From Alphaproteobacteria bacterium (lineage in GTDB: Bacteria > Pseudomonadota > Alphaproteobacteria > UBA8366), in contig WHUA01000001.1 of assembly GCA_009377445.1 (NCBI GenBank), forward strand, positions 582,725 through 646,724: a stretch of DNA of 64,000 nucleotides, written 5' to 3'. Shown in pieces: positions 22,583-22,690 of the stretch (its first letter is position 1; every line of letters begins with the position of its first letter). Under the pieces are notes generated by a model that was given only the letters and a program-made list of their open reading frames with translations, ran no database searches and had not been told where the DNA came from. The translations under genes and the position numbers were made by a program.

Positions 22583-22690
22583 CAGATCAATTTACCTGCA
22601 ATCAGGTGGAATCACCTGATTGCAGGTAAATTGATCTATCTTAAAAGGTAGAGCAACTTATCTGCGTCCGATCGGACGCAGGTTGCTCTA
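22583..22690 (-). mobile_element. MITE-like two-hairpin element (copy 2)
   Basis: The minus strand reads TA-GAGCAACCTGCGTCCGATCGGACGCAGATAAGTTGCTCTACCTTTTAAGATA-GATCAATTTACCTGCAATCAGGTGATTCCACCTGATTGCAGGTAAATTGATC-TG. Hairpin B has perfect 24-bp arms. It is near-identical to copies 3-5. Confidence 0.88.

Follow-up and report, generated by a model that had tools for sequence, protein, structure and literature searches.

Overlap of a TA-flanked two-hairpin repeat with TAG stop codons in an alphaproteobacterial genome

Why should the copies of a short repeat lie in the stop codons of genes? The question is raised by a 64,000 nt stretch of an alphaproteobacterial genome (the window; 67% G+C), which contains five copies of one two-hairpin repeat and in which no further copies were found. 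The original prediction allowed two answers: that the copies lie where their target sequence happens to lie, or that they are retained behind genes as 3' terminators or stabilisers. Here we describe the copies, their insertion sites and a wider family of relatives, and ask which answer the comparisons favour.

The five window copies and the genes they adjoin

Four of the window copies (c2 to c5) are full length, at 101-105 nt with the flanking TA excluded. Copy c1 (20587-20630, minus strand; TA flanks at 20585-20586 and 20631-20632) is a short form that has lost hairpin B and consists of hairpin A and the terminal TTGATC. Copy c2 (22585-22688, minus strand) reads on that strand as hairpin A (22688-22651), linker (22650-22637) and hairpin B (22636-22585), with a GAATC/GATTC site at the hairpin B apex (22609-22613); its right TA is at 22689-22690 and its left, B-side TA has decayed to CA (22583-22584). 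The plus-strand copies are c3 (47313-47413; TA flanks 47311-47312 and 47414-47415), c4 (54557-54657; TA flanks 54555-54556 and 54658-54659) and c5 (59081-59185; TA flanks 59079-59080 and 59186-59187). All five have G as the first base, C as the last base and TA on either side, the left flank of c2 now being CA.

Hairpin A is conserved in sequence and reads GAGCAAC-CTGCGTCC-(loop)-GGACGCAG-ATAA-GTTGCTC. It is joined by a linker of about 15 nt, TAACCTTTTAAGATA, to hairpin B, in which the structure is kept and the sequence is not. Hairpin B of the window copies reads GATCAATTTACCTGCAATCAGGTG-ATTC-CACCTG...TTGATC, and has the feet GATCAA...TTGATC and a GANTC (CcrM) site at its apex. Each arm is a palindrome in itself, with feet of the GAGCAA or GATCAA type. 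The two ends of the element, GAGCAA and GATCAA (the reverse complement of TTGATC), match at 5 of 6 positions; as terminal inverted repeats they are short and imperfect.

At four junctions the TAG is the stop of a real gene according to the open reading frames and Pfam, in line with the claim that TAG there consists of the duplicated TA and the terminal G of the element. Pfam confirms the PBP, YgjP/DUF45, ankyrin, 23S_rRNA_IVP, GST, nitrile hydratase beta, ChvI, ChvG, DUF427 and AhcY assignments. The class A PBP gene (18665-20587, plus strand) has its TAG stop (20585-20587) at the B-remnant end of c1, so that c1 overlaps this stop with its B end and is anti-oriented to the gene. The YgjP-like (DUF45) metallopeptidase gene (20638-21657, minus strand) is convergent with the PBP gene, and 4-5 nt separate its TGA stop from the A end of c1, in agreement with the predicted distance. 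The 23S_rRNA_IVP four-helix gene is also on the minus strand, and its TAG stop (22690-22688) consists of the duplicated TA and the first G of c2; the ankyrin-repeat gene (21676-22563, plus strand) is convergent with it, and its TGA is separated from the B end of c2 by about 20 nt.

The two remaining stops are on the plus strand. The TAG of the GST gene (47311-47313) is at c3, which lies between GST and the first nitrile-hydratase beta gene. Close by is a 300 nt direct repeat with 78% identity (47440-47739 and 47874-48173), which corresponds to two tandem nitrile-hydratase-beta N-terminal paralogues and is unrelated to the element. The TAG of chvI (54555-54557) is at c4, within a chvI-chvG spacer of about 120 nt in the window versus 17 nt in relatives. 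We note that c4 fills this spacer with strongly folding sequence, and may alter co-expression of the two-component pair. Copy c5 touches no stop codon; it lies 66 nt past the DUF427 gene, as had been stated, and about 50 nt ahead of the ahcY start.

Insertion at YTAR with duplication of TA

Presence or absence of the element is polymorphic among close relatives. The sites of c3, c4 and c5 are element-free in syntenic relatives with ChvI 96-97% identical, and one syntenic relative (ChvI 97% identical) lacks the element at all three; the nearest named ChvI homologues are those of Telmatospirillum and Kiloniellales. At the chvI site three relatives read GAGA(C/G)CTAGCCGG, with the chvG start 17 nt on, and the window reads ...CTAG-element-CTAGCCGG. 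Since all three have an unoccupied CTAG stop, the chvI TAG existed within CTAG before the element arrived, and TA was duplicated cleanly. The c5 site is empty in another relative (L144), with flanks that align perfectly on both sides. At GST the insertion is not clean. Two relatives (L012:4050-4090 and L142:3985-4030) have TGA at the same codon together with about 35 nt that are absent from the window; the GST TAG is therefore not demonstrably older than the element, and it may have come from the element once neighbouring sequence had been deleted, not by regeneration.

Relatives of the element were collected from many organisms, not from one genome. Metagenomes scanned for a pattern lying in hairpin A gave at least 120 loci, from which chance matches, mirror matches of symmetric variants and duplicates were removed. 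A scan of genome contigs with an 18-mer gave 10 loci, of which only 4 are true relatives. With the genome loci added, the census, drawn from metagenomes and genomes, holds at least 112 independent copies beyond those of the window, their independence confirmed by BLAST of the flanks, and the whole sample is ascertained through hairpin A. Its sources include marine and soil metagenomes among the matches listed. Element boundaries were set by foot-motif rules and manual curation. Genes were called on short metagenomic contigs with a home-made codon log-odds caller with start trimming, which reproduces the Pfam-confirmed window genes and the supplied gene calls of a syntenic relative.

Among the matches listed, the left TA is intact in 94 of 112 census copies and the right TA in 69 of 98. 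The base preceding the left TA is C in 75 copies, T in 16, G in 2 and A in 1, and the base following the right TA is G in 54, A in 12, T in 3 and C in none (again among the matches listed). The flanks are thus mirror-symmetric, with Y before TA and R after it, and the target is YTAR with duplication of TA. The first base of the element is G in 110/112 copies and the last is C in 94/98, among the matches listed. One copy (L010/L052) is inserted at a tTAa target, and the G and C therefore belong to the element itself.

These flanks also bear on the possibility that the element is a remnant of the single-strand IS200/IS605 or REP/RAYT type, inserted directionally 3' of CTAG without any duplication, its right-hand CTAG being borne by the element. 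Such an origin would suit the two unlike end hairpins and the lack of long terminal inverted repeats, the chvI and c5 sites, whether filled or empty, agree with it equally well, and the right TA is less well kept than the left (69/98 versus 94/112, among the matches listed). However, the base at the right flank (G 78%, A 17%) mirrors that at the left (C 80%, T 17%), and among the matches listed these flanking bases vary while the true element ends are 96-98% conserved, which points to a palindromic YTAR and a TA duplication. Moreover, both orientations occur within one uniformly rising GC-skew stretch of the window, and the short forms retain both ends, GAGCAA and TTGATC. We regard a single-strand origin as very unlikely.

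The element would be moved by a DDE transposase acting in trans, which would cut Y-TA-R and duplicate TA, in the manner of IS711, of the IS5/IS427 group, whose members in alphaproteobacteria are flanked by 2 bp direct repeats (PMC3281130), or of IS630. Because the element's own ends are G...C, each insertion turns xTAy into xTA-G...C-TAy, with TAG written on both strands, and a TAG stop is rebuilt wherever the element lands on one. The mobilising autonomous element would be expected to have ends of the form TA-GAGCAACCTGCG... or TA-GATCAA..., and neither an autonomous element with matching ends nor a solo end beside a transposase was found in the approximately 1 Mb of sequence examined.

Several variant forms occur in the family. 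One locus is represented by two alleles from two samples, one in which hairpin B is missing (L062:925-967) and one with the full element (L115:2093-2199), and from this pair we conclude that short forms such as c1 arise by internal deletion of hairpin B. A second pair, L138 and L098, was considered as one locus in inverted orientation and was dropped, the match being only 151 nt with 73% identity. Head-to-tail dimers with a common junction are present in L036:1349-1558 (also L120), joined as TTGATC-TC-GAGCAAC, and in L042:1250-1407, joined as TTGATC-TAA-GAGCAAC; they recall mosaic repeat clusters. Five loci (L047, L051, L074, L075 and L112) carry a symmetric hairpin A, bulged with ATAA/TTAT on each side; it is a perfect palindrome and is matched by the search pattern on both strands.

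Stop-codon occupancy, orientation and folding

CTAG is rare in the window, as had been stated for high-GC DNA: 33 CTAGs are present, where base composition predicts 196 and a Markov estimate 62, and 9 of the 33 flank elements. Within the window, occupied sites make up 4/8 of CTAG-stops and 1/17 of other non-coding CTAGs (Fisher p=0.023). A segment at 38000-43100 has about 60% GC versus 67%, contains weak gene calls only and accounts for 11 of the 24 free CTAGs in the window. Window-level CTAG statistics are distorted by this segment; without the low-GC 38-43 kb segment and its 11 free CTAGs the same test gives p=0.28. It includes a tRNA gene (41796-41869, minus strand) and may be an acquired island.

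The overlap with stop codons stands, and it generalises beyond the window. Among the matches listed, 37 of 112 census copies (33%) overlap a stop, which is supplied by 29/103 A ends and 13/95 B ends, and 14 of 20 sampled ORFs ending in a junction TAG carry Pfam domains. Five of the listed copies (L059, L071, L073, L088 and L111) supply both stops of a convergent gene pair, from which it follows that these pairs once shared a single CTAG as overlapping stops.

Is a third more than the target would give? When all non-coding sites are pooled, elements are on a stop in 37/112 cases and free CTAGs in 25/171 (p=0.0004, among the matches listed). This excess vanishes only when sites are stratified by spacer type, and its source is long or poorly called, CTAG-rich regions. 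Where genes are co-directional and within 300 nt on both sides, the shares are 14/39 for elements and 16/48 for free CTAGs (odds ratio 1.1, p=0.82); in convergent spacers they are 14/16 and 6/10 (p=0.16), and in divergent spacers 0/7 and 0/13, all among the matches listed. The original prediction had named equality between the stop overlap and the share of CTAG sites that are stops as an outcome that speaks against a functional reading, and within spacer classes the two are equal. Its suggestion that target choice alone may explain the placement is supported by the same figures: because the co-directional stop shares are equal, target choice suffices.

We therefore favour, with a probability of about 0.7, the reading that the repeat is a non-autonomous two-armed transposable element with a YTAR target, TA duplication and G...C ends, whose placement follows its target with no terminator role needed. 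CTAG is scarce in GC-rich genomes, and in short spacers of the normal kind about one in three CTAGs is a stop, so that about one third of insertions fall on stops. Such insertions would probably be harmless because the stop is rebuilt, and rebuilt for both genes where a convergent pair shares one CTAG. Orientation relative to genes is close to random.

Every window copy had been said to read in the direction of the preceding gene. This is true of c3 to c5 (3/3, p=0.25). Copies c1 and c2 lie between convergent genes, where either orientation is co-oriented with one neighbour, and so carry no orientation information. In the family, among the matches listed, 23 copies at co-directional sites have the A-then-B order relative to the upstream gene and 16 have the reverse order (p=0.34); stricter gene calls give 16 co-oriented and 10 anti-oriented copies. 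Among the matches listed, 38 have a gene 3' end no more than 60 nt from the A end, and 30 from the B end.

Exact stop overlaps are less even, with 24 copies overlapping by the A end only and 8 by the B end only (among the matches listed). This counts against pure target choice, which does not predict such a bias. In full-length copies with both ends readable the ratio is 18:8 (p=0.08, among the matches listed). The bias was found after several comparisons, in a sample ascertained through hairpin A, and we regard it as no more than suggestive.

Hairpin A followed by AACCUUUU had been likened to an intrinsic terminator, a likeness that did not hold up: a scan for consensus terminators flags none of the window copies. 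In the tail TAACCTTTT that follows hairpin A, the four Ts begin 5 nt past the stem, and 8 nt of it contain no more than 4 T. Only 19/110 relatives have 5 or more T in the 8 nt after hairpin A, and only 14 have TTTT, among the matches listed; the CCTTTT run is restricted to one subfamily. Termination at c4 would presumably be harmful, cutting off the chvG kinase gene, which follows a 17 nt spacer in relatives. The proposal that copies are retained as 3' terminators thus finds against it the 23:16 orientation, the negative terminator scan and a stop occupancy equal to that of free CTAGs by class; neither it nor the co-orientation claim is supported.

A broader form of this proposal is that selection keeps the copies because mRNA is ended or stabilised by hairpin A, or by both hairpins together, when transcribed behind a gene. 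It would account for the position on stops and for the A-then-B order, it agrees with the preference for A ends at stops (29 versus 13 overall, 24 versus 8 where a single end is involved, among the matches listed), and the Correia/NEMIS and ERIC repeats do affect mRNA processing (PMC2229807). Compared with free CTAGs, elements also lean slightly towards convergent spacers and away from divergent ones, with co-directional, convergent and divergent sites at 39:16:7 versus 48:10:13 (p=0.17, among the matches listed). The hairpins are very stable and their structure is conserved: the element has an RNA folding energy of -55 to -66 kcal/mol on either strand, and in an alignment of 81 full copies among the matches listed 93.6% of cells are paired under the two-hairpin model, with changes on both sides in 20/39 pairs. 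Compensatory changes occur in 11/15 pairs of the hairpin B inner stem, and hairpin A is almost invariant in sequence (same alignment, matches listed). Against selection for an mRNA role are the co-directional orientation, the similar numbers of gene 3' ends near A and B (38 and 30) and the 19/110 relatives with a T-rich tail, all among the matches listed, as well as the failure of every copy in the terminator scan. Within spacer classes elements and free CTAGs are on stops equally often, and the A-end bias, found after several tests, is only 18:8 (p=0.08) in full-length copies. Both results, which are for the matches listed, argue in the same direction, as does the position of c4 between chvI and chvG, genes that are 17 nt apart in relatives. 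On balance we think selection for such a role unlikely.

The two readings might be combined, with G...C ends that are an adaptation making stops safe landing sites, and with the A-behind-stop orientation (about 3:1) kept through a weak effect on mRNA 3'-end stability or translation termination, on top of otherwise neutral transposition. We consider this combination unlikely. If the adaptation is real, the family could spread through gene-dense genomes.

The GANTC site suggests a further role, that of a host-domesticated DNA signal in which a cruciform or hairpin offers GANTC to the CcrM methyltransferase and the gene-end position reflects that function. The site is at the hairpin B apex in 46/96 full copies among the matches listed, where chance would give about 3%, and all four full window copies have it; CIR repeats are defined by the same apex GANTC, and a CcrM-related role has been speculated for them (PMC2229807). 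However, half of the listed copies have lost the site, most of them differing by a single change such as GATTT, GGTTC or GAGTA, and hairpin B is wholly lost in short forms (c1, and L062 versus L115). The presence or absence of the element between close relatives also speaks against a domesticated signal, and methylation leaves the TA duplication unaccounted for. We find this very improbable.

Under the preferred reading, that of a transposable element whose placement follows YTAR, its position on stops reveals no new regulatory mechanism. The same rule allows convergent genes that share one CTAG to be separated with neither damaged. For annotation, TAG followed by GAGCAAC or GATCAA is a mark of insertion, and the stop may be one supplied by the element, as perhaps at GST.

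Relationship to known repeats

Small, non-coding repeats that duplicate TA and are mobilised in trans include RUP of Streptococcus pneumoniae (by IS630-Spn1), Correia/NEMIS and ERIC, and like the window element they are often found just 3' of genes. They fold into a single long end-to-end stem, whereas the arms of the window element form two separate hairpins and its terminal repeats are very short. In Rfam, searched at the gathering threshold, the window gives a tRNA only, and E-value mode adds chance-level matches only. One such sub-threshold match, at 47280-47421, is to the Brucella sRNA CI27 (RF02600; 14.9 bits versus a gathering threshold of 59.8, E=0.29) and is non-significant; the CI27 'sRNA' may be a transcribed Bru-RS-type repeat.

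The two-palindrome plan is shared with RIME1, reportedly a 108 bp Rhizobium repeat with two large palindromes, said to have been first seen by Osteras, Stanley and Finan in 1995 in the chvI-chvG (exoS) spacer, the same spacer that c4 occupies. Close relatives have no element at this site, and the two occurrences in one spacer therefore reflect separate insertions. A repeat on a Rhizobium plasmid (L011:3001-3108) is built to this plan; its B apex, GGTGATTCCACC, is identical to that of the window element, with which it aligns at 72% identity (E=4e-6). Repeats of its type are present only in Rhizobium, Ensifer and Sinorhizobium plasmids and a few others, and by analogy may be RIME1. RIME1 has reportedly been described as restricted to the Rhizobiaceae, whereas the window family occurs in an alphaproteobacterium with its nearest named ChvI homologues in Telmatospirillum and Kiloniellales, and in diverse soil and marine metagenomes. 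As it is not confined to the Rhizobiaceae, we class it alongside RIME1 and not as RIME1 itself.

The palindromic Bru-RS repeats of Brucella, Bru-RS1 and Bru-RS2, measure 103 and 106 bp (Halling & Bricker 1994) and are likened to the element by description, the non-significant CI27 match being the only other link. They are associated with IS711, an element that has a preference for them and duplicates TA at YTAR (PMC2266754, PMC3163539), which is the same YTAR and TA-duplication rule as that of the window element. CIR1-4, the CcrM-associated intergenic repeats (Chen & Shapiro 2003, summarised in PMC2229807), are about 110 bp long and have two inverted-repeat arms, a linker and TA termini, with GANTC at the terminal loop of one arm. 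They occur in Caulobacter, Brucella and other alphaproteobacteria; their target duplication is listed as unknown and the mechanism of their mobility as unclear (PMC2229807). The window element resembles them in its 101-105 nt, its two arms and linker, its GANTC apex and its TA termini, a match of description and not of sequence, and both are intergenic, multi-copy repeats of alphaproteobacteria. To what is described for CIR it adds a demonstrated TA duplication at YTAR and the regeneration of stop codons.

Judged by architecture and not by comparison of the CIR, RIME and Bru-RS sequences, the element would thus appear to be a further member of these two-armed alphaproteobacterial repeats. It provides a concrete transposition rule (YTAR, TA duplication, G...C ends) for CIR, RIME and Bru-RS-type repeats, whose mobility was previously unclear, and this rule accounts for the pile-up of such repeats exactly at gene ends.
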